Of a stretch of DNA of 64,000 nucleotides, positions 1-10,453 are shown one piece after another. Source of the stretch: Escherichia coli (GTDB lineage: Bacteria; Pseudomonadota; Gammaproteobacteria; Enterobacterales; Enterobacteriaceae); the NCBI RefSeq assembly GCF_016026235.1, contig NZ_CP065613.1; one strand, written 5' to 3'. Numbering within the stretch: the first letter of the stretch is position 1; each line of letters starts with the position of its first letter. The notes under the pieces are model-generated. The model saw nothing but the letters and a program-made list of their open reading frames with translations, was not told the DNA's origin and did not search any database. The translations under genes were made by a program, and so were the position numbers.

Positions 1-716
1 AAACGAAAGGTGCGGGAACGACGTTCTGGATGTACACCGGCAAGGGCGATGCGTTTGCGAACCCTTTGTCGGACACTGACTGGCTGCGTCTTGCGATGGT
101 GAAGGATCTGCAACCTGGCGAAATGACCGCTGATGCAGAAGATGACACTTATCTCGATGATGAAGATGCAGACTGGAAAACGACAACCCAGGGGCAGAAA
201 TCCGTCGGTGATACTTTGGCGACGCTGGCCTGGCGTCCGGGTGACAGCGGGCAGAAAAAACTGGTTCAGTTGTTCGATTCCGGTGAAGTCTGCGCGTTTC
301 GTATCAAATACCCCAACGGTACGGTTGATGTTTTCCGTGGCTGGCTGAGTTCACTGGGTAAAACCATTACCTCAAAAGAGGTGATGACCCGTACTGTAAA
401 AATCAGCGGTGTGGGGCGTCCGTATCTGGCAGAGGAGGGCGCTGAAACCGTGGGTGTTACCGGACTGACGGTGGCACCGGCATCTGTCAGTGTCAAAGCG
501 GGAGCAACCACCACACTGACCTTTACAGTAAAACCTGACGGGGCCAGTGACAAAGCGATCAGTGTGCATTCGTCAGATCCTCAGACTGCTTCGGTGACCC
601 TGAGCGGGCTTGTGGCCACGGTGAAAGGCGTGAAGCAGGGCAGTGTCAGCATCGTGGGCATGACCTCTGACGGAGAGTTTGTGGCAGTGGCTGCGGTGAC
701 CGTCAGCGCACCATAA
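1..716 (+). CDS. V: Major tail protein V, 5'-partial (frame open to window start), with C-terminal Ig-like domain
   Basis: Translation matches lambda gpV (ANPLSD..DWLRLA..KDL.PGE...YLDDEDADW; C-terminal Big_2-like TVAPASVSVKAG...); no stop between position 3 and the listed ATG at 30. Confidence 0.9.
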   Translation, partial: TKGAGTTFWMYTGKGDAFANPLSDTDWLRLAMVKDLQPGEMTADAEDDTYLDDEDADWKTTTQGQKSVGDTLATLAWRPGDSGQKKLVQLFDSGEVCAFRIKYPNGTVDVFRGWLSSLGKTITSKEVMTRTVKISGVGRPYLAEEGAETVGVTGLTVAPASVSVKAGATTTLTFTVKPDGASDKAISVHSSDPQTASVTLSGLVATVKGVKQGSVSIVGMTSDGEFVAVAAVTVSAP

Positions 717-736
717 CAGGACGATACTCATCATTG

Positions 737-759
737 CCCCGGTTATCCGGGGCTTTTTG
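737..759 (+). terminator. GC hairpin (CCCCGG-TTAT-CCGGGG) followed by CTTTTT between V and G; possible partial terminator/attenuator
   Basis: Perfect 6-bp GC stem, 4-nt loop and T-run read directly from sequence. Confidence 0.4.
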
Positions 760-774
760 CATCCGGAGAACATG

Positions 775-1161
775 ATGTTTCTGAAACAGGATACGTTTAA
801 TTATGAAAAACAGTCCGTGGTGCTCAGTGAGCTGTCCGGGCTGCAGAGAATTGAATATCTGACGTTTGTTCAGCAGCGAACGGCAAAGTTTGATGCACAG
901 GAGGGAGAACTGCCGGAGGCTGAACGACAGATTGCTTTTCTGCGTATGGGAATGGATATCAATGCCTGGCTGGTTTCCCGCTCACTGTGGAATGCTGAGC
1001 AGTCTCAGGATGTTGAGACGCTTTGCGCATCCATTATGACAACATGGTCGTATGATGCGCTGGGCGCGGGGGCGGAGAGGGTTCTGTCGCTGAGCGGTAT
1101 GGGGACCATTGAGAATGCCGGGGATGATGATCATGAGGCGCTGACGCCGGAAAAGTCCTGA
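775..1161 (+). CDS. G: Tail assembly chaperone G
   Basis: MFLKQDTF..VVLSELSGLQRIEYL resembles lambda gpG; GGAG 6 nt upstream of ATG 775 (ATG 772 also possible). Confidence 0.85.
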   Translation: MFLKQDTFNYEKQSVVLSELSGLQRIEYLTFVQQRTAKFDAQEGELPEAERQIAFLRMGMDINAWLVSRSLWNAEQSQDVETLCASIMTTWSYDALGAGAERVLSLSGMGTIENAGDDDHEALTPEKS

Positions 1162-1499
1162 CGCGGGAAATGCAGTTTGTCATGCGGCTTGCCCGGGAGT
1201 TCCGGCGGGCAGACTGGCGGCGGATGCTGTCGGAAATGTCGGCCACTGAGCTTGGTGAGTGGGGCGATTATTTCCGGATGCAGAGCTTCAGTGATGTGTG
1301 GATGGATGCGCAGTTTGCCTCGCTGAAGGCATTGATCGTGAGAATGGTGTCCGGCAGCAGCGATGCTGCGGTGGCTGATTTCAGCCTTTTACCGGAAGAG
1401 AACGGGATACCGGAGCGAACGGACGAAGAACTGATGCATCTTGGGGAAGGTATTTCCGGAGGTGTGCGTTATGGACCAGATAGCCAACCTGGTCATTGA
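1137..1499 (+). CDS. T: T segment of tail assembly chaperone G-T; no own start, expected to be expressed by -1 ribosomal frameshift from G
   Basis: ORF in the -1 frame relative to G, open from 1137, overlapping the last 25 nt of G; same arrangement as lambda G/G-T; only A-run in the overlap is GGAAAAG at 1149-1155. Confidence 0.7.
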   Translation, partial: GADAGKVLTREMQFVMRLAREFRRADWRRMLSEMSATELGEWGDYFRMQSFSDVWMDAQFASLKALIVRMVSGSSDAAVADFSLLPEENGIPERTDEELMHLGEGISGGVRYGPDSQPGH

Positions 1500-4400
1500 T
1501 TTGGGGATTGATGCGGCAGAGTTTAAAAATGAAATTCCCCGTATCAAAAACCTTCTGAATGGTGCAGCCAGCGATGCAGAACGGTCTTCTGCCCGTATGC
1601 AGCGTTTTATGGAGCGTCAGACTCAGGCGGCCCGGCAGACAATGCAGGCGGCTTCTTCGGCTGCAACAGCAGCATCAGCCCATGCGCAGACGGTGGAAAA
1701 GAACGCACGGGCTCATGAACGCATGGCCCGTGAGGTGGAACAAACCCGTCTGCGCGTGGATGCCCTGAATCAGAAAATGCGCGAGGAACAGGCGCAGGCC
1801 AGGGCACTGGCGGAGGCGCAGGATAAAGCGGCTGCCGCCTTTTATCGCCAGATTGACAGTGTGAAACAGGCCGGTGCGGGGCTTCAGGAATTACAGCGTA
1901 TTCAGCAGCAGATCCGACAGGCCAGAAACAGTGGCGGGGTTGGTCAGCAGGATTATCTGGCGCTGATTTCGGAGATCACGGCGAAAACCCGTGCCCTGAC
2001 GCAGGCAGAGGAACAGGCCACCCGGCAGAAAGCGGCGTTTATCCGCCAGCTTAAAGAGCAGGCAACCCGCCAGAATCTGTCGTCTTCTGAGTTGCTTCGC
2101 GCCAGGGCGGCTCAGCTGGGGGTAAGCAGTGCTGCAGAAGTGTATATCCGCAAAATGGAGCGGGCAGGAAAAGCCACACATTCGCTGGGGCTGAAAAGTG
2201 CGGCAGCCCGGCGGGAGCTGGGGGTGTTAATCAGTCAGATGGCGCGCGGCAATTTTGGTGCGCTGAGGGGATCCGGGATAACGCTGGCTAACCGTGCCGG
2301 ATGGACAGGCGCACTGATGTCGCCGAAAGGCATGATGACTGGCGGCGTTATTGGCGGACTTGTCGCGGCGGTCCTGGGTCTGGGTAAAGCCTGGCATGAC
2401 GGCCGGAAGGAGGGCGAGGAATTTAACCGTCAGCTGGCGCTGACGGGACATTATGCCGGTGTCACTGTCGGGCAGTTGTGGAAACTCAGCCGGGCCATAT
2501 CCGGGAATGGTATCACGCAACATGCGGCAGCCGGTGCGCTGGCACAGGTGGTGGGCAGTGGGGCATTTCATGGAAACGATATTGGTATGGTGGCGAAAGC
2601 TGCCGCACAGATGGAGCGATCGGTTGGCCAGTCGGTCAGCGATACCATAAATCAGTTTAAGCGGCTGAAGGATGATCCTGTAAATGCCGCGAAGGCGCTG
2701 GACAATGCGTTGCATTTTTTGACTGCCACTCAGCTTGAGCAGATACGCGTCCTTGGGGAGCTGGGGCGGTCCAGTGATGCGGCCCGGATCGCCATGTCTG
2801 CGCTGGCAGAGGAAACCGGTAAACGCACATCTGATATTGATAATAATCTCAATGCGCTGGGTAGTACGCTGCAAACCTTGTCTGACTGGTGGAAGCAGTT
2901 CTGGGATGCGGCCATGAATATTGGTCGTGAAGACTCGCTGGATGCGCAGATTGATGCGTTACAGGAAAAAATTCAGCGCGCGAAAAAATATCCGTGGACA
3001 AACGCCTCCACACAGGTGGAGTACGATCAGCAGCGTCTTAACGATCTTCAGGAGAAAAAACGCCGGAAGGATTTGCAGGATGCAAAAGCGCAGGCAGAAC
3101 GGAATTACCAGGAGCAACAGAAACGCCGGAATGCTGAAAATGCCGCGCTGAACCGGATGAATGAAACGGAAGCTGCACGACATCAGCGGGAAATTGCGCG
3201 TATTAATGCCATGCAGTACGCCGACCAGGCTGTCAGGGATGCGGCGATACAGCGTGAAAATGAACGTTACGAAAAAGCCATTAAGAAAAATACACGGGCA
3301 ACCCGTAATGATGAGGCCACCCGGTTATTGCTGCAGTACAGTCAGCAGCAGGCACAGGTGGAAGGGCAGATTGCTGCTGCCAGACAGTCAGCAGGCATTG
3401 CCACTGAAAGGATGACTGAAGCGCATAAACAGCTTCTGGCCCTGCAGCAGCGCATCAGCGACCTGGACGGGAAAAAGCTGACGGCAGATGAAAAGAGTGT
3501 GCTGGCCCGTAAGAATGAGCTGATTCAGGCGCTGACGCTGCTGGATGTGAAACAGCAGGAGCTGCAGAAACAGACAGCGCTTAACGACCTGAGAAAAAAA
3601 ACGGTTCAGCTGACCAGCCAGCTGGCAGACAAAGAACGTGCACTGCGTGAGCAGCACAATCTGGATATTGCCACTGCAGGTATGGGGGATAAGCAGCGGC
3701 AGCGCTACCAGGCACAGTTGCGCATCCGGCAGGAATACCGGCAACAGTTGCAACAGCTTGAGAATGACAGTCGCCAGAAAGGCACTTACGGGACGGAGGA
3801 CTACCGGAGGGCTGAGGAGGTGCTGAAGGGGAGCCTGAAGCGACAACTGAATGAAAACAAACGCTACTGGCAGGAACTGGAAGTGGCGCAGGGCGACTGG
3901 AAAAACGGTGCCATGCGGGCGTTTCAGAATTTTACGGCGGATGCGGATAATGCGGCGGGAACGGCAGAACAGATGTTTACAGTGGCATTCAGCAGTGCCG
4001 GTAATGCACTGGCGACATTCTGTACCACCGGTAAGCTGAATTTTAAATCCTTCACCTCTTCCCTGTTGTCAGATATGGCCAGAATTATGGCACAGATGGC
4101 CATGATGCAGGCGGTAAAGGGCGTCGGTTCTTTATTCGGCTTCACGACTAATGCTGATGGCGGTGTTTACCAGTCTGCTGATTTGAGTCGCTACAGTGGC
4201 ATGGTGGTTAACCGTCCGACGTTTTTTGCTTTTGCAAAAGGCGCGGGTGTGATGGGGGAAGCGGGACCTGAAGCCATTCTGCCACTGCGTCGCGGTGCTG
4301 ATGGTAAGCTGGGGGTTGTGGCGGATACTGGTGGTTCAGGCATGGTGATGTTTGCCCCGCAGTACAACATTGAGATCAATAACGACGGCACGAACGGGCA

Positions 4401-4512
4401 GATAGGTCCGGCTGCCCTGAAGGTGGTTTATGACCTCGGGAAAAAAGCGGCCGCGGACTTTATGCAACAGCAGGCCCGTGATGGTGGCCGGTTAAGTGGA
4501 GCATACCGGTAA
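1471..4512 (+). CDS. H: Tail tape measure protein H
   Basis: N-terminus (MDQIANLVIDLGIDAAEF) and C-terminus (INNDGTNGQIGPAALK.VYD...RDGG) lambda gpH-like; long Q/A/R-rich coiled-coil centre; start assigned to ATG 1471, which overlaps the end of T. Confidence 0.9.
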   Translation: MDQIANLVIDLGIDAAEFKNEIPRIKNLLNGAASDAERSSARMQRFMERQTQAARQTMQAASSAATAASAHAQTVEKNARAHERMAREVEQTRLRVDALNQKMREEQAQARALAEAQDKAAAAFYRQIDSVKQAGAGLQELQRIQQQIRQARNSGGVGQQDYLALISEITAKTRALTQAEEQATRQKAAFIRQLKEQATRQNLSSSELLRARAAQLGVSSAAEVYIRKMERAGKATHSLGLKSAAARRELGVLISQMARGNFGALRGSGITLANRAGWTGALMSPKGMMTGGVIGGLVAAVLGLGKAWHDGRKEGEEFNRQLALTGHYAGVTVGQLWKLSRAISGNGITQHAAAGALAQVVGSGAFHGNDIGMVAKAAAQMERSVGQSVSDTINQFKRLKDDPVNAAKALDNALHFLTATQLEQIRVLGELGRSSDAARIAMSALAEETGKRTSDIDNNLNALGSTLQTLSDWWKQFWDAAMNIGREDSLDAQIDALQEKIQRAKKYPWTNASTQVEYDQQRLNDLQEKKRRKDLQDAKAQAERNYQEQQKRRNAENAALNRMNETEAARHQREIARINAMQYADQAVRDAAIQRENERYEKAIKKNTRATRNDEATRLLLQYSQQQAQVEGQIAAARQSAGIATERMTEAHKQLLALQQRISDLDGKKLTADEKSVLARKNELIQALTLLDVKQQELQKQTALNDLRKKTVQLTSQLADKERALREQHNLDIATAGMGDKQRQRYQAQLRIRQEYRQQLQQLENDSRQKGTYGTEDYRRAEEVLKGSLKRQLNENKRYWQELEVAQGDWKNGAMRAFQNFTADADNAAGTAEQMFTVAFSSAGNALATFCTTGKLNFKSFTSSLLSDMARIMAQMAMMQAVKGVGSLFGFTTNADGGVYQSADLSRYSGMVVNRPTFFAFAKGAGVMGEAGPEAILPLRRGADGKLGVVADTGGSGMVMFAPQYNIEINNDGTNGQIGPAALKVVYDLGKKAAADFMQQQARDGGRLSGAYR

Positions 4513-4841
4513 TGGAGACGTTTCACTGGAAAGTGCGCCCGGATATGAATGTGGTATCAGAGCCGAAAGTGGTGACAGTGAAGCTGGGCGATGGTTATGA
4601 ACAGCGTCGTGCGGCGGGACTGAATAACCAGTTGTCGACTTACAGCGTGACGATACGTGTTCGTAAAGGTGAACACCCATCTTTAAAAGCCTTTCTGGAA
4701 CGGCACGGTGGCGTCCGCGCATTTCAGTGGACGCCACCTTATGACTGGAAACTGATCAGGGTGGTTTGTCGTAAATGGTCGGCAAGCGTGGGGGCGTTAT
4801 GGGTGACTGTAACGGCCGATTTTGAACAGGTGGTGAACTGA
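4512..4841 (+). CDS. M: Minor tail protein M
   Basis: 109-aa ORF resembling lambda gpM; TAATG overlap with H stop. Confidence 0.9.
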   Translation: METFHWKVRPDMNVVSEPKVVTVKLGDGYEQRRAAGLNNQLSTYSVTIRVRKGEHPSLKAFLERHGGVRAFQWTPPYDWKLIRVVCRKWSASVGALWVTVTADFEQVVN

Positions 4842-5539
4842 TGCAGGATATCCGGCAGGAAACACTGAATGAATGCACCCGTGCGGAGCAGTCAGCCCGG
4901 GTGGAGCTCTGGGAAATCGATCTGACAGAGGTCGGTGGTGAGCGTTATTTTTTCTGTAATGAGCAGAACGAAAAAGGTGAGCCGGTCACCTGGCAGGGGC
5001 GGCAGTATCAGGCATACCCCATTCAGGGGTCGGGGTTTGAACTGAACGGCAGGGGCTGTGCTGCCCGTCCGACACTGACGGTCTCTAACCTGCACGGCAT
5101 GGTCACCGGTATGGCGGAAGATCTGCAGAGTCTGGTCGGCGGAACGGTGGTCCGGCGTAAGGTTTACGCCCGTTTTCTGGATGCGGTGAACTTCGTCAAC
5201 GGAAACAGCGACGCCGATCCGGAACAGGAGGTGATCAGCCGCTGGCGCATCGAGCAGTGCAGCGAACTGAGCGCGGTCAGTGCCTCTTTTGTGCTGGCCA
5301 CACCAACGGAGACGGATGGCGCGGTTTTCCCGGGGCGTATCATGCTGGCGAATACCTGTATGTGGACTTACCGTTCTGATGAGTGTGGTTACACGGGCAG
5401 GGCAGTGGCTGACGAGTTCGACAAACCAACGACGGATATCCGGAAGGACAAATGCAGCAAGTGTATGCGCGGGTGTGAGTTGCGCAACAATACCGGTAAT
5501 TTCGGCGGTTTCCTTTCCATCAATAAACTTTCTCAGTAA
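4841..5539 (+). CDS. L: Minor tail protein L
   Basis: 232-aa ORF resembling lambda gpL, Cys cluster near C-terminus; TGATG overlap with M. Confidence 0.9.
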   Translation: MQDIRQETLNECTRAEQSARVELWEIDLTEVGGERYFFCNEQNEKGEPVTWQGRQYQAYPIQGSGFELNGRGCAARPTLTVSNLHGMVTGMAEDLQSLVGGTVVRRKVYARFLDAVNFVNGNSDADPEQEVISRWRIEQCSELSAVSASFVLATPTETDGAVFPGRIMLANTCMWTYRSDECGYTGRAVADEFDKPTTDIRKDKCSKCMRGCELRNNTGNFGGFLSINKLSQ

Positions 5540-5543
5540 ATCC

Positions 5544-6287
5544 ATGACACAGACAGAATCAGCGATTCTGGCGCACGCCCGGCGATGTGCGCCAGCGGAG
5601 TTGTGCGGCTTCGTGGTGAGAACGCCGGAGGGGGAAAGATATTTTCCCTGCGTGAATATCTCCGGTGAGCCGGAGGCGTATTTCCGGATGTCGCCGGAGG
5701 ACTGGCTGCGGGCAGAGATGCAGGGTGAGATTGTGGCGCTGGTCCACAGCCACCCCGGTGGTCTGCCCTGGCTGAGTGAGGCTGACAGGCGGCTGCAGGT
5801 GCAGAGCGATTTGCCGTGGTGGCTGGTCTGCCGGGGTGAGATTCATAAATTCCGCTGTGTGCCGCATCTTACCGGGCGGCGCTTTGAGCACGGGGTGACG
5901 GACTGTTACACGCTGTTCCGGGATGCTTATCATCTGGCGGGGATTGAGATGCCGGATTTTCATCGCGGGGATGACTGGTGGCGTCACGGTCAGAATCTCT
6001 ATCTTGACAATATGGAGGTGACGGGTTTTTACCGTGTCGCACTGACAGAGGCACAGCCGGGCGATGTGCTGCTGTGCTGTTTTGGTTCATCGGTGCCGAA
6101 TCATGCCGCCATTTACTGCGGTGACGGCGGGCTGCTGCACCATATTCCTGAACAACTGAGCAAACGAGAGAGGTACACCGACAAATGGCAGCGACGCACA
6201 CACTCCCTCTGGCGTCACCGGGCATGGCGCGCATCTGCCTTTACGGGGATTTACAACGATTTGGTCGCCGCATCGACCTTCGTGTGA
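5544..6287 (+). CDS. K: Tail tip assembly protein K (JAB/MPN + NlpC/P60-like)
   Basis: MTQTESAILAHARRCAP...HSHPGG motif; start set at ATG 5544 directly after L stop, not at the upstream ORF-track start 5280. Confidence 0.85.
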   Translation: MTQTESAILAHARRCAPAELCGFVVRTPEGERYFPCVNISGEPEAYFRMSPEDWLRAEMQGEIVALVHSHPGGLPWLSEADRRLQVQSDLPWWLVCRGEIHKFRCVPHLTGRRFEHGVTDCYTLFRDAYHLAGIEMPDFHRGDDWWRHGQNLYLDNMEVTGFYRVALTEAQPGDVLLCCFGSSVPNHAAIYCGDGGLLHHIPEQLSKRERYTDKWQRRTHSLWRHRAWRASAFTGIYNDLVAASTFV

Positions 6288-6826
6288 AAACGGGGGCTGA
6301 AGCCATCCGGGCACTGGCCACACAGCTCCCGGCGTTTCGTCAGAAACTGAGTGACGGCTGGTATCAGGTGCGCATTGCCGGGCGTGATGCAGGTGAAACC
6401 GAATTGTCTGCCCGTCTTAATGAGCCGCTGGCAAATGGTGCAGTGATCCACATAGTACCGCGTCTGGTGGGAGCTAAAAGTGGCGGTGTGTTTCAGGCGG
6501 TGCTGGGGGCGGCTGTTATGGCGGTTGCTATATGGATGCCGGGGGTAGGAATTATGGCGAGTAATCTGCTGTTTTCTCTCGGTGCCAGTATGACGCTTGG
6601 CGGTGTTGCACAGATGCTGGCACCGAAAGCCAGAACTCCCCGTACACAGACAACGGATAACGGTAAGCAGAACACGTATTTCTCGTCACTGGATAACATG
6701 GTTGCCCAGGGCAATGTTCTGCCCGTTCTGTACGGTGAAATGCGCGTGGGGTCACGTGTGGTTTCTCAGGAGATCAGCACGGCAGACGAAGGGGATGGTG
6801 GTCAGGTTGTGGTGATTGGTCGCTGA
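6185..6826 (+). CDS. I: Tail tip assembly protein I
   Basis: MAATHTLPLASPGMARICLYGDLQRFG...; ubiquitin-like N-terminus and hydrophobic C-terminus typical of lambda gpI; overlaps K 3' end; alternative start at 6224. Confidence 0.8.
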   Translation: MAATHTLPLASPGMARICLYGDLQRFGRRIDLRVKTGAEAIRALATQLPAFRQKLSDGWYQVRIAGRDAGETELSARLNEPLANGAVIHIVPRLVGAKSGGVFQAVLGAAVMAVAIWMPGVGIMASNLLFSLGASMTLGGVAQMLAPKARTPRTQTTDNGKQNTYFSSLDNMVAQGNVLPVLYGEMRVGSRVVSQEISTADEGDGGQVVVIGR

Positions 6827-6886
6827 TGCAAAATGTTTTATGTGAAACCGCCTGCGGGCGGTTTTGTCGTTTATGGAGCGTGAGGA

Positions 6887-9800
6887 ATGGGTAAAGGCAG
6901 CAGTAAGGGGCATACCCCGCGCGAAGCGAAGGACAACCTGAAATCCACGCAGTTGCTGAGTGTGATTGATGCCATCAGCGAAGGGCCGGTTGAAGGTCCG
7001 GTGGATGGATTAAAAAGCGTGCTGCTGAACGGTACGCCGGTCCTGGACAGCGAGGGGAAGACAAACTTTTCCGGTGTTACGGTGGTGTTCCGCGCCGGCG
7101 AGCAGGAGCAGACACCGCCGGAGGGGTTTGAATCTTCCGGCTCAGAGACTGTGCTGGGTACGGAAGTGAAATACGACACGCCGATCACCCGGACCATCAC
7201 GTCGGCAAACATTGATCGTCTGCGCCTGACCTTCGGTGTGCAGGCACTGGTGGAAACCACCTCAAAGGGGGACCGGAATCCGTCGGAAGTCCGCCTGCTG
7301 GTTCAGATACAGCGTAACGGTGGCTGGGTGACGGAAAAAGACATCACCATTAAGGGCAAAACCACTTCGCAGTATCTGGCCTCGGTGGTGGTGGGTAACC
7401 TGCCGCCGCGCCCGTTTAATATCCGGATGCGCAGGATGACACCGGACAGCACCACAGACCAGCTGCAGAACAAAACGCTCTGGTCGTCGTACACCGAAAT
7501 CATCGATGTGAAACAGTGCTACCCGAACACGGCGCTGGTCGGCGTGCAGGTGGATTCAGAGCAGTTCGGTAACCAGCAGGTGAGTCGCAATTATCATCTT
7601 CGCGGGCGCATTCTGCAGGTGCCGTCGAACTATAACCCGCAGACGCGGCAATACAGCGGTATCTGGGACGGAACGCTTAAGCCAGCATACAGCAACAACA
7701 TGGCCTGGTGTCTGTGGGACATGCTCACTCATCCGCGCTACGGCATGGGGAAACGTCTTGGTGCGGCAGATGTGGACAAATGGGCGCTGTATGTCATCGG
7801 CCAGTACTGCGACCAGTCAGTGCCGGACGGATTTGGCGGCACGGAGCCGCGCATCACCTGTAACGCTTACCTGACCACACAGCGTAAGGCGTGGGATGTT
7901 CTCAGTGATTTCTGCTCGGCGATGCGCTGTATGCCGGTATGGAACGGGCAGACGCTGACGTTCGTGCAGGACCGACCGTCGGATAAGGTGTGGACCTATA
8001 ACCGCAGTAATGTGGTGATGCCGGATGATGGCGCGCCGTTCCGTTACAGCTTCAGCGCCCTGAAGGACCGCCATAATGCCGTTGAGGTGAACTGGATTGA
8101 TCCGGACAACGGTCATGAGACGGCGACAGAGCTTGTGGAGGACACGCAGGCCATTCTCCGTTACGGTCGTAACGTCACGAAGATGGATGCCTTTGGCTGT
8201 ACCAGCCGGGGACAGGCGCACCGCGCCGGGCTGTGGCTGATTAAAACAGAACTGCTGGAAACGCAGACCGTGGACTTCAGCGTGGGTGCTGAAGGGCTTC
8301 GCCATGTACCGGGCGATGTCATTGAAATCTGCGATGATGACTATGCCGGTATCAGCACCGGCGGGCGCGTGCTGGCGGTGAACAGCCAGACCCGGACGCT
8401 GACGCTCGACCGTGAAATCACGCTGCCATCCTCCGGTACCACGCTGATAAGCCTGGTTGACGGAAGTGGCAATCCGGTCAGCGTGGAGGTCCAGTCCGTC
8501 ACCGACGGCGTGAAGGTGAAAGTGAGCCGTATTCCTGACGGCGTTGCCGGATACAGCGTGTGGGGGCTGAAGCTGCCGACGCTGCACCAGCGCCTGTTCC
8601 GCTGTGTGAGTATCCGTGAGAACGACGACGGCACGTATGCCATCACCGCCGTGCAGCATGTGCCGGAAAAAGAGGCCATTGTGGATAACGGGGCACACTT
8701 TGACAGTGACCGGCGCGGCACGGTGAATGGTGTCACGCCGCCAGCAGTGCAGCACCTGACCGCAGAAGTCATCGCAGGCAGCGGGGAATATCAGGTGCTG
8801 GCGCGCTGGGACACGCCGAAGGTGGTGAAGGGGGTGAGCTTCCTGCTTCGCCTGACCGTGGCAGCGGATGACGGCAGTGAGCGGCTGGTCAGCACAGCCC
8901 GGACGACGGAAACCACATATCGTTTCACGCAGCTTGCGTTGGGGCGTTATACGCTGACAGTCCGGGCGGTAAATGCCCGGGGGCAGCAGGGCGATCCGGT
9001 GTCGGTATCGTTCCGGATTGCGGCACCGGCAGCGCCTGTCACTATTGAACTGATACCGGGGTATTTTCAGATAACGGCGGTCCCGAAACTGGCTGTATAT
9101 GACCCGACGGTGCAGTTTGAGTTCTGGTTTTCGGAAAAGCGGATTGCGGATATCAGGCAGGTTGAAACCACAGCCCGCTATCTTGGCACGGCGCTGTACT
9201 GGATAGCCGCCAGTATCAATATCAAACCGGGCCATGATTATTATTTTTACGTTCGCAGTGTGAACACCGTTGGCAAATCGGCATTTGTGGAGGCCGTCGG
9301 TCGGGCGAGCGATGATGCGGAAGGTTATCTGAGTTTTTATAAAGGGTTGATCAATAAAACGCATCTCGGCAAGGAGTTGTGGACGCAGATTGATAACGGT
9401 CAGCTTGCGCCGGACCTGACTGAAATCAGGACGTCCATTACGAATGTCAGCAATGAAATCACGCAAACCGTCAATAAAAAACTGGAAAATCAGAGTGCTG
9501 CAATCCAGCAGATACAGAAAGTTCAGGTTGATACAAATAATAACCTGAACAGCATGTGGGCTGTGAAGCTGCAACAGATGAAGGACGGACGCCTTTATAT
9601 TGCGGGTATCGGTGCCGGTATTGAGAATACGCCAGCAGGAATGCAGAGTCAGGTGCTGCTGGCGGCAGACAGGATTGCGATGATTAATCCTGCGAATGGC
9701 AACACAAAGCCGATGTTTGTTGGTCAGGGCGATCAGATATTCATGAACGACGTGTTCCTGAAACGCCTGACGGCTCCGACCATTACCAGCGGCGGTAATC

Positions 9801-10384
9801 CTCCGGCATTTTCCCTGACACCTGGCGGACGGCTGACGGCGAAAAATGCCGATATCAGCGGTAACGTGAACGCGAACTCCGGGACGCTCAACAACGTCAC
9901 GATTAACCAGAACTGTACGATTAAGGGCATGCTGGAGGCGACCCAGGTCAGAGGGGATTTCGTTAAAGCTGTATCAAAAGCCTTCCCGAAAAAAGTCGGT
10001 ACGTGGGGTAACACGGAAACACCAAACGGTACGGTTACAGTCACCATCAGCGATGATCATAACTTTGACCGCCAGATTATTATTCCGCCCATTATTTTTA
10101 ACGGTATAGCGTATGACGATCCGGGGAGCGGAAATAACCTAGGAGGCACGCGATACACGGGTTATGGTTTTGAAGTTCGCAAAAACGGCGTATTAATCGC
10201 ATCCAGAGAAACTAAAGGGGCCATTCCCGGTAGTTACAGTGCAGTTATTGATATGCCTAGTGGTGGTGGTAGCGTCACTCTGGAGTTTAAGATTTTCCAG
10301 AAAGGCAATCAGGGGGCAGGCAATATCACCGACTGTACGGTGATTGTGACCAAAAAAGCGGCTTCCGGCATCAGTATTCGTTGA
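6887..10384 (+). CDS. J: Host specificity (central tail fibre / tip attachment) protein J
   Basis: 1165-aa ORF, lambda gpJ-like N-terminal two thirds with FN3-like repeats, divergent C-terminus; GAGGA before ATG. Confidence 0.9.
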
Positions 10385-10404
10385 AATTGTTATAACCCAT
10401 ATAA

Positions 10405-10431
10405 GGGCACCAGAAATGGTGCCTTTTTTAT
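10405..10431 (+). terminator. Rho-independent terminator after J
   Basis: GGGCACC-AGAAAT-GGTGCC followed by TTTTTTATT. Confidence 0.6.
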
Positions 10432-10453
10432 TGCAGAAAAGCGAGAGGTAATT

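Follow-up and report, generated by a model that had tools for sequence, protein, structure and literature searches.

A terminator-type hairpin after the major tail gene V of a lambdoid prophage and its possible role in virion mRNA dosage

Intrinsic terminators are common inside the antiterminated late operons of phages, and the authors of the phage L genome, who remarked that "their roles are not known", offered two options for them: partial termination, or the stopping of transcription that lacks antitermination (PMC8022706). Phage L, which is P22-like, itself has a predicted intrinsic terminator within a late operon that is read from a single promoter and is antiterminated. This terminator stands where the procapsid gene module ends and differs from the site described here in following head genes, in podoviruses that have no V-G junction. 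Another arrangement of this type is found in SPP1, where one predicted terminator spans positions 8775–8815, the capsid gene 13 ending at 8777, and another spans positions 11255–11304, the tail tube gene 17.1* ending at 11279 and the chaperone gene 17.5 starting at 11363 (PMC6316719). As in phage mEp460 and, for the tail tube gene, in the prophage analysed here, a hairpin with a U-run stands directly after the major capsid and tail tube genes (17.1/17.1*) and ahead of a chaperone pair of the G/GT type (17.5/17.5*). However, SPP1 is an unrelated Bacillus siphophage with unrelated sequence, its terminators are only predicted, and Q-type antitermination is not known from its late operons.

The balancing of expression by leaky terminators is documented for T7, and such terminators have also been seen in LUZ7 (10.1101/2022.03.18.484859). 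Those of the T7 T-phi type resemble the hairpin after V in standing behind the gene of the most abundant structural protein and in letting part of the transcription through, but T7 RNA polymerase is not modified for antitermination and termination has been demonstrated there. The T7 T-phi terminator lies after gene 10. A different mode of action is known from malE-malF: once an endonuclease has cut downstream, PNPase and RNase II are stopped by a 3′ hairpin, and the upstream cistron is stabilised (PMC5927463). In Clostridium, a similar process of selective RNA processing and stabilisation sets subunit stoichiometry (PMC4423207). Two publications, a transcriptomic study of Salmonella prophages (PMC7067206) and a re-analysis of lambda ribosome profiling (PMC5737525), contain nothing on the V-G junction. 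The sRNA-17 of E. coli K1 was discarded as a lead, since it comes from an mEp460-like prophage but from an intergenic region of more than 1 kb that is not the V-G spacer (PMC7719688).

The window, that is, the whole stretch of 64,000 nucleotides of Escherichia coli DNA that was analysed, starts within the tail operon of a lambdoid prophage, whose genes follow one another as V, G, T, H, M, L, K, I, J, lom, and side tail fibre. Its first 1.5 kb share about 95% identity with several phages, among them cdtI, mEp460, Ayreon, and Tritos, and about 1840 of the 5426 complete E. coli genomes have a copy that covers at least 80% of them. All the tail genes discussed here are on the plus strand. Of the major tail tube gene V, which the window edge truncates, the 3′ part is present (1–716; first in-window ATG at 30, stop TAA at 714–716); the frame 30–716 matches Pfam Phage_TTP_12 (E = 4e-65) and Big_2, and V is 95% identical at the DNA level to the V genes of mEp460, cdtI, and Ayreon. 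The tail assembly chaperone gene G (775–1161, with an alternative ATG at 772; Phage_TAC_2, E = 3e-40) aligns with lambda G starting at MFLK. It is preceded by a GGAG ribosome-binding site (765–768) that is conserved in the alignment of relatives. The T reading frame (1170–1499; Phage_tail_T) is −1 relative to G by frame arithmetic, giving a G-T fusion, and is followed by the tape measure gene H (1471–4512; TMP_2, TMP_4, and Tape_meas_lam_C). These matches agree with the gene assignments of the original prediction for V, G, T, and H. The 3′ end of G (1141–1161, plus strand) reads CTG ACG CCG GAA AAG TCC TGA, in which G GAA AAG is a candidate slippery heptamer, the equivalent in lambda being G GGA AAG.

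The closest genome labelled E. coli, FDAARGOS_943 (NZ_CP065615.1, 779415–781691), is 99.9% identical and has an IS1A inside the V-G-T stretch; the window lacks this insertion. Directly past the tail-fibre end of the prophage, and convergent with the tail operon, lies a gene for an IpaH-type effector of type III secretion, an E3 ubiquitin ligase with NEL and LRR_TTSS domains (13283–15046, minus strand). It identifies the host as one of the Shigella/EIEC type, and is itself probably prophage cargo. In such an ipaH-bearing genome, the prophage may be defective.

The spacer between V and G measures 55–58 bp (the V stop ends at 716 and the ATG of G is at 772 or 775), and not 40 bp as first stated. 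It starts with 19 nt (717–735) that are unstructured according to sequence and fold, continues with the hairpin GCCCCGG-TTAT-CCGGGGC (736–753, plus strand), which has seven G-C pairs and a tetraloop, and then with the U-tract TTTTT (754–758) followed by GCAT (up to 762). The end of the hairpin is 11 nt from the GGAG of G. The perfect CCCCGG/CCGGGG stem with a T-run that had been reported in this spacer is thus confirmed, and the stem is longer by one G-C pair. In a consensus scan of positions 1–12000, this is the top-ranked terminator-like site (7/7 G-C, loop of 4, tail TTTTTGCATC), and with a d'Aubenton-Carafa-type score of d = +32.6 it is also the strongest in the tail region. The hairpin has the anatomy of an intrinsic terminator: the G/C-rich stem and the loop are within the usual ranges (about 5–14 bp and 3–8 nt), the U-tract starts directly after the stem where 0–2 nt are usual, and the element is noncoding, 3′ of a stop codon, and co-oriented with the operon, 19 nt past the end of V. 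A gap of this length would probably let the hairpin form without hindrance from a ribosome on the stop codon.

Folded alone (733–760), the hairpin has a free energy of −16.2 kcal/mol, makes up 93% of the ensemble, and has a z score of −3.6 relative to shuffled sequences. The fold of a 91-nt segment around it has a z of only −0.9 because the flanks are unstructured, and given the value for the hairpin by itself we do not regard this as a negative result. We also searched both strands of the window under a strict definition (a stem of 7 bp or more without mismatch and with six or more G/C, a loop of 3–8, and five or more T within the next eight bases). This returned six sites, compared with a mean of 0.08 in 100 dinucleotide shuffles, and the chance expectation of such a motif in a single spacer of 58 nt is about 4e-5. 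On the minus strand the same palindrome lacks a T-run (AATGATGAG). The terminator signal is therefore unidirectional, which rules out a bidirectional terminator. The palindrome is single-copy in the 64 kb, even with up to three mismatches allowed, and hence is not a repeated extragenic palindrome of the REP/BIME type. A scan of the whole window against Rfam at gathering thresholds matched no family. Taken together with its conservation (see following), the sequence indicates that the hairpin is a genuine conserved element of the intrinsic-terminator type.

The orthologous hairpin is already annotated as a rho-independent terminator, in the interval between the genes for the major tail protein and the chaperone, in mEp460 (JQ182728, 8751–8774) and in Ayreon (MF807953, 8742–8782). 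The feature itself is therefore not new. The alignment is base for base and identifies these elements with the hairpin of the window; that of mEp460 has a single C-to-T change, by which the loop-closing G-C becomes G-U. The features of both phages are computational predictions and otherwise show no difference of substance from the window. Judged by its sequence, the V-G hairpin is an ordinary, already annotated, intra-operon hairpin of the terminator type.

A scan of IMG/VR with the G protein gave 48 loci. The V-G junction was examined in 47 of them, and the hairpin is present in all but one. The variants include C-to-T changes that yield G-U pairs, and one locus with 80% identity in G has the loop ACAT. 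Most copies are more than 90% identical, and conservation among these is therefore little informative. In a group with 65% identity in G, the hairpin reads ACCCCGG-TATG-CCGGGGT and is followed by six or seven T. There the loop has changed from TTAT to TATG, and the 18-nt stretch that leads from the V stop to the hairpin no longer aligns with that of the window, yet the stem is kept, with a double change from G-C to A-U at its base. Across the relatives, the gap between the V stop and the hairpin remains at 18–20 nt despite the divergence of its sequence, and the U-tract has 5–7 T, including in the 65% group and in Gifsy-2. In the latter the T-run persists, but the stem is in decay, with three G-U pairs and a free energy of −5.5 kcal/mol.

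Among the 11 distinct variants, 100% of the cells are standard pairs, versus 31–69% when the partner is slid; one pair has changed on both sides and four on one side only. The covariation score was reached by five of 500 shuffles, a proportion that, according to the warning of the tool, is not a probability. The covariation amounts to one double change (in two sequences, probably one event) plus G-U wobbles, and as evidence for the stem these substitutions appear supportive but thin. One IMG/VR locus in which the left arm is replaced (2558860274_000012, 1141–1728) was rejected as a natural variant, as it is the remnant of a deleted prophage. The deletion, whose joint falls within the loop of the V-G hairpin, has brought fragments of terminase and portal genes up against G, which is itself incomplete and runs on into gene L.

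The comparison with the lambda junction that had been suggested as a check gives a different picture: the lambda V-G spacer is 15 bp long (TCCGGAGAGTCAGCG) and has no hairpin. The same is true of phi80, mEp043, ev017, ev099, 4A7, CP-1639, PhiR12_2*, and an Stx2a phage, whose spacers are of 10–15 bp. In a scan of one genome per bacterial species, 37 loci were found in Enterobacterales, 36 of which have a recognisable V-G junction. The spacer has 6–23 bp in 26 of these prophages (6–13 bp in all but one of the 26), which leaves no room for a hairpin; the other 10 have longer spacers with hairpins. V-G junctions thus fall into two classes, of 6–23 nt without structure and of at least 36 nt with a hairpin. 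Four of the 10 hairpins (in Edwardsiella, Symbiopectobacterium, Serratia, and Entomohabitans) are canonical terminators of unrelated sequence, and six are G/C hairpins without a U-tract. Five of these six form, with phage mEp237, an N15-like group that shares CGGGGC-loop-GCCCCG; besides mEp237 it comprises prophages of Citrobacter, Kluyvera, Buttiauxella, and Atlantibacter. The stems of this group are nearly invariant and the loops are GAAA, TGTG, TTCG, TTCG, CTTG, and GTGA, that is, mostly known classes of hyperstable tetraloops (GAAA, GTGA, TTCG, CTTG) plus TGTG. Homology between this type and the hairpin of the window was considered and rejected, as the flanks cannot be aligned and the order of the arms is opposite (the 5′ arm is C-rich in the window and G-rich in the N15/mEp237 type).

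From these sequences, a hairpin after V is optional and yet has arisen several times independently, and in some lineages it cannot be a terminator. The U-less hairpins of the sister lineages argue that a hairpin alone is selected at this junction even where termination would be impossible. Since lambda and most relatives have none, any effect must be dispensable and is perhaps small. Hence, the hairpin cannot be needed for the ratio of V to G: functional relatives, lambda included, lack it, which is one of the outcomes that the original prediction had named as refuting it.

The late operon contains other hairpins of this type. In the window, scan and fold identify one past J and ahead of lom (10403–10432, plus strand) and one past lom (11080–11106, plus strand), the equivalents of which are annotated in mEp460. 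The two bracket lom (10454–11053), an outer-membrane-protein moron, as they do in the mEp460 annotation. A strong G/C hairpin, GGAGGCCCG-GGGG-CGGGCCTC (13219–13240, plus strand; about −19 kcal/mol), is followed by a T-rich run just 3′ of a DUF4376 gene of the tail-fibre region and probably marks the end of the late operon. Inside the T frame there is a weak hairpin, GGCTGA-TT-TCAGCC followed by TTTT (1372–1389, plus strand). It matches a feature within gene T of mEp460 (9389–9406) that bears the label of a rho-independent terminator, a call that is probably a prediction artefact. The late operon of mEp460 has five annotated terminators: after gene 005, after V, inside T (the weak one), and on each side of the lom moron. 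Gene 005 is a fusion of a ClpP protease and a capsid protein, hence the major head protein, and the terminator is directly 3′ of it. This site (6334–6390) contains GCCC-GTAA-GGGC followed by seven T, next to a second G/C hairpin, AGCCCC-TGAAC-GGGGCT, that has no T-run. The presence of terminators directly after the capsid gene and after V in mEp460 fits a role in stoichiometry.

Each lambda tail contains about 192 V subunits. G and G-T are chaperones that are not part of the virion, and their balance matters for assembly. Reportedly, Ray and Pearson (1974–75) described post-transcriptional control of the morphogenetic genes of lambda. The Q21 antiterminator is described as fitting the RNA exit channel with a nozzle that keeps terminator hairpins from forming almost without exception and that stays topologically locked on over tens of kilobases (10.1101/651190). 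A Q antiterminator is encoded by mEp460 (Pfam Antiterm, E = 1e-53); the Q gene and late promoter of the prophage studied here lie outside the window. A polymerase that started at the late promoter and arrives at V has passed the promoter-proximal terminator and should therefore be Q-loaded. As such a polymerase would be blind to the hairpin, the main route of action would be post-transcriptional.

We suggest that the V-G hairpin may be a dosage divider, which would define and protect the 3′ end of the late mRNA that contains V. The weakly translated G-T-H segment would be cut by an endonuclease, after which 3′-to-5′ exonucleases would chew back and halt at the −16 kcal/mol hairpin. The V message would then outlast or outnumber the message of G, G-T, H, and the genes beyond, and true termination at the site would concern mainly the polymerases without Q modification. 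What the sequences show is the motif and where it lies, its conservation with a compensatory change, its absence in many relatives, the parallel signal 3′ of the capsid gene, and the presence of Q in relatives; we infer all the steps of this model that involve RNA ends, decay, and protein ratios. Among the readings that we consider, one in which the hairpin acts mainly by protecting the 3′ end of the V mRNA is our preference, held tentatively and at somewhat less than even chance.

Several observations favour it. The motif is far beyond chance, and stem and U-tract are kept in the IMG/VR copies. A protective stem-loop is expected to be stable and to stand where the more heavily demanded cistron ends, which is the case after V. 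The likeness with malE-malF, where a stable stem-loop is 3′ of the more-needed cistron within one operon, is in this respect close, although malE-malF has a REP repeat that lacks a U-tract, and the hairpin of the window is single-copy and has a full terminator tail. Protection of this kind would work regardless of Q and would account for the U-less hairpins of the sister lineages. Finally, mEp460 and SPP1 show parallel terminators after the capsid and tail tube genes, and sites that follow the genes of the two most abundant virion proteins suggest stoichiometry as their role more than generic insulation. Against a dosage divider, one has that lambda and most relatives manage without the hairpin, and that real termination is a simpler explanation of a conserved U-tract than the blocking of exonucleases. 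The conservation of the U-tract is indeed the main argument for some real termination activity, which would operate at least on unmodified polymerase.

The idea can be extended to other phages. Hairpins after the major capsid and tail genes of Q-antiterminated operons, in which terminators would be unable to act as such, could be RNA-decay barriers that set the stoichiometry of virion mRNAs. At the V-G junction of Enterobacterales prophages they have several separate origins, some having U-tracts and others only hyperstable tetraloops (GAAA, UUCG, CUUG). The label "terminator" would then designate the wrong mechanism. This generalisation is possible but doubtful, more so than the dosage-divider reading of the single hairpin.

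Some doubt, slightly greater still, attaches to the first alternative, that of a leaky intrinsic terminator at which some of the late-operon polymerases would halt, so that fewer transcripts enter G, T, H, and the genes beyond. This is the partial terminator of the original prediction, which is supported in part: the terminator anatomy, the pairing-preserving conservation, the place after V, and the annotations speak for it. The anatomy is fully canonical (a stem of 7 bp of G/C, a loop of 4 nt, and five U directly after it), the score is the top of the tail region, and the U-tract is conserved across the lineage, even in Gifsy-2 with its decayed stem. The orthologs in mEp460 and Ayreon carry the rho-independent label, partial termination is one of the possible roles named by the phage L authors (PMC8022706), and leaky terminators have the precedents of T7 and LUZ7. 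As with T-phi, the site is right after the gene of an abundant virion protein (V), with the less-needed G, T, and H downstream. However, the polymerase that arrives at V should already be Q-loaded, and the Q nozzle would block the formation of the hairpin. As the late operons are read by Q-modified polymerase, the partial termination of late transcripts is the least secure step of this explanation, which must also accommodate the U-less hairpins at the same junction in sister lineages and the lack of any such site in lambda.

An insulator would be fully compatible with Q. Under this explanation, the hairpin would end Q-less transcription from spurious promoters or from promoters active in the lysogen, and so silence the distal tail genes and the cargo in the lysogen, being ignored in lytic growth. 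It explains hairpin and U-tract together, is the other option put forward for intra-operon terminators in the phage L genome paper (PMC8022706), and agrees with the terminators that flank the lom moron in the same operon. But it gives no reason for a placement after the major capsid and major tail genes, nor for the U-less hairpins of the sister lineages, and the promoter-like sites upstream within V do not exceed chance (six versus 6.5 expected over 12 kb). We consider it unlikely.

Even less likely, in our opinion, is that the hairpin is a neutral relic without present function, such as the terminator of an inserted gene that was then lost, or a passenger that hitch-hikes with V and G. One would expect a relic to be dispensable, as the hairpin is in most relatives, and to decay, as it does in Gifsy-2 with its three G-U pairs and −5.5 kcal/mol, and the near-identity of most copies (>90%) makes their conservation weak information on the matter. 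Yet stem, U-tract, and a compensatory change are kept in the 65% group while the spacer diverged beyond alignment, and unrelated hairpins arose independently at the V-G junction in several lineages. Highly improbable, finally, is a translational decoupler, in which the structured spacer of 55–58 nt would bar re-initiation on G after V and leave G to be translated only from its own weaker start, the lambda-type junctions of 10–15 nt permitting coupling: the two classes of junction and a hairpin that ends 11 nt ahead of GGAG, just beyond the usual 30S footprint, agree with it, but it is purely inferential, leaves the U-tract unexplained, and has to face the fact that lambda, for all its short spacer, still produces V and G in different amounts.

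For the annotation and engineering of lambdoid tail operons, these results call for caution, because a terminator call within the late operon is no sign that a transcription unit ends there, and the signal is dispensable, lambda being without it. If the hairpin, as a dosage divider or otherwise, sets the ratio of V to G/GT/H, it would show that virion stoichiometry is tuned inside one long antiterminated transcript, and would answer the question raised by annotators on the purpose of intra-operon terminators in Q-dependent late operons (PMC8022706).
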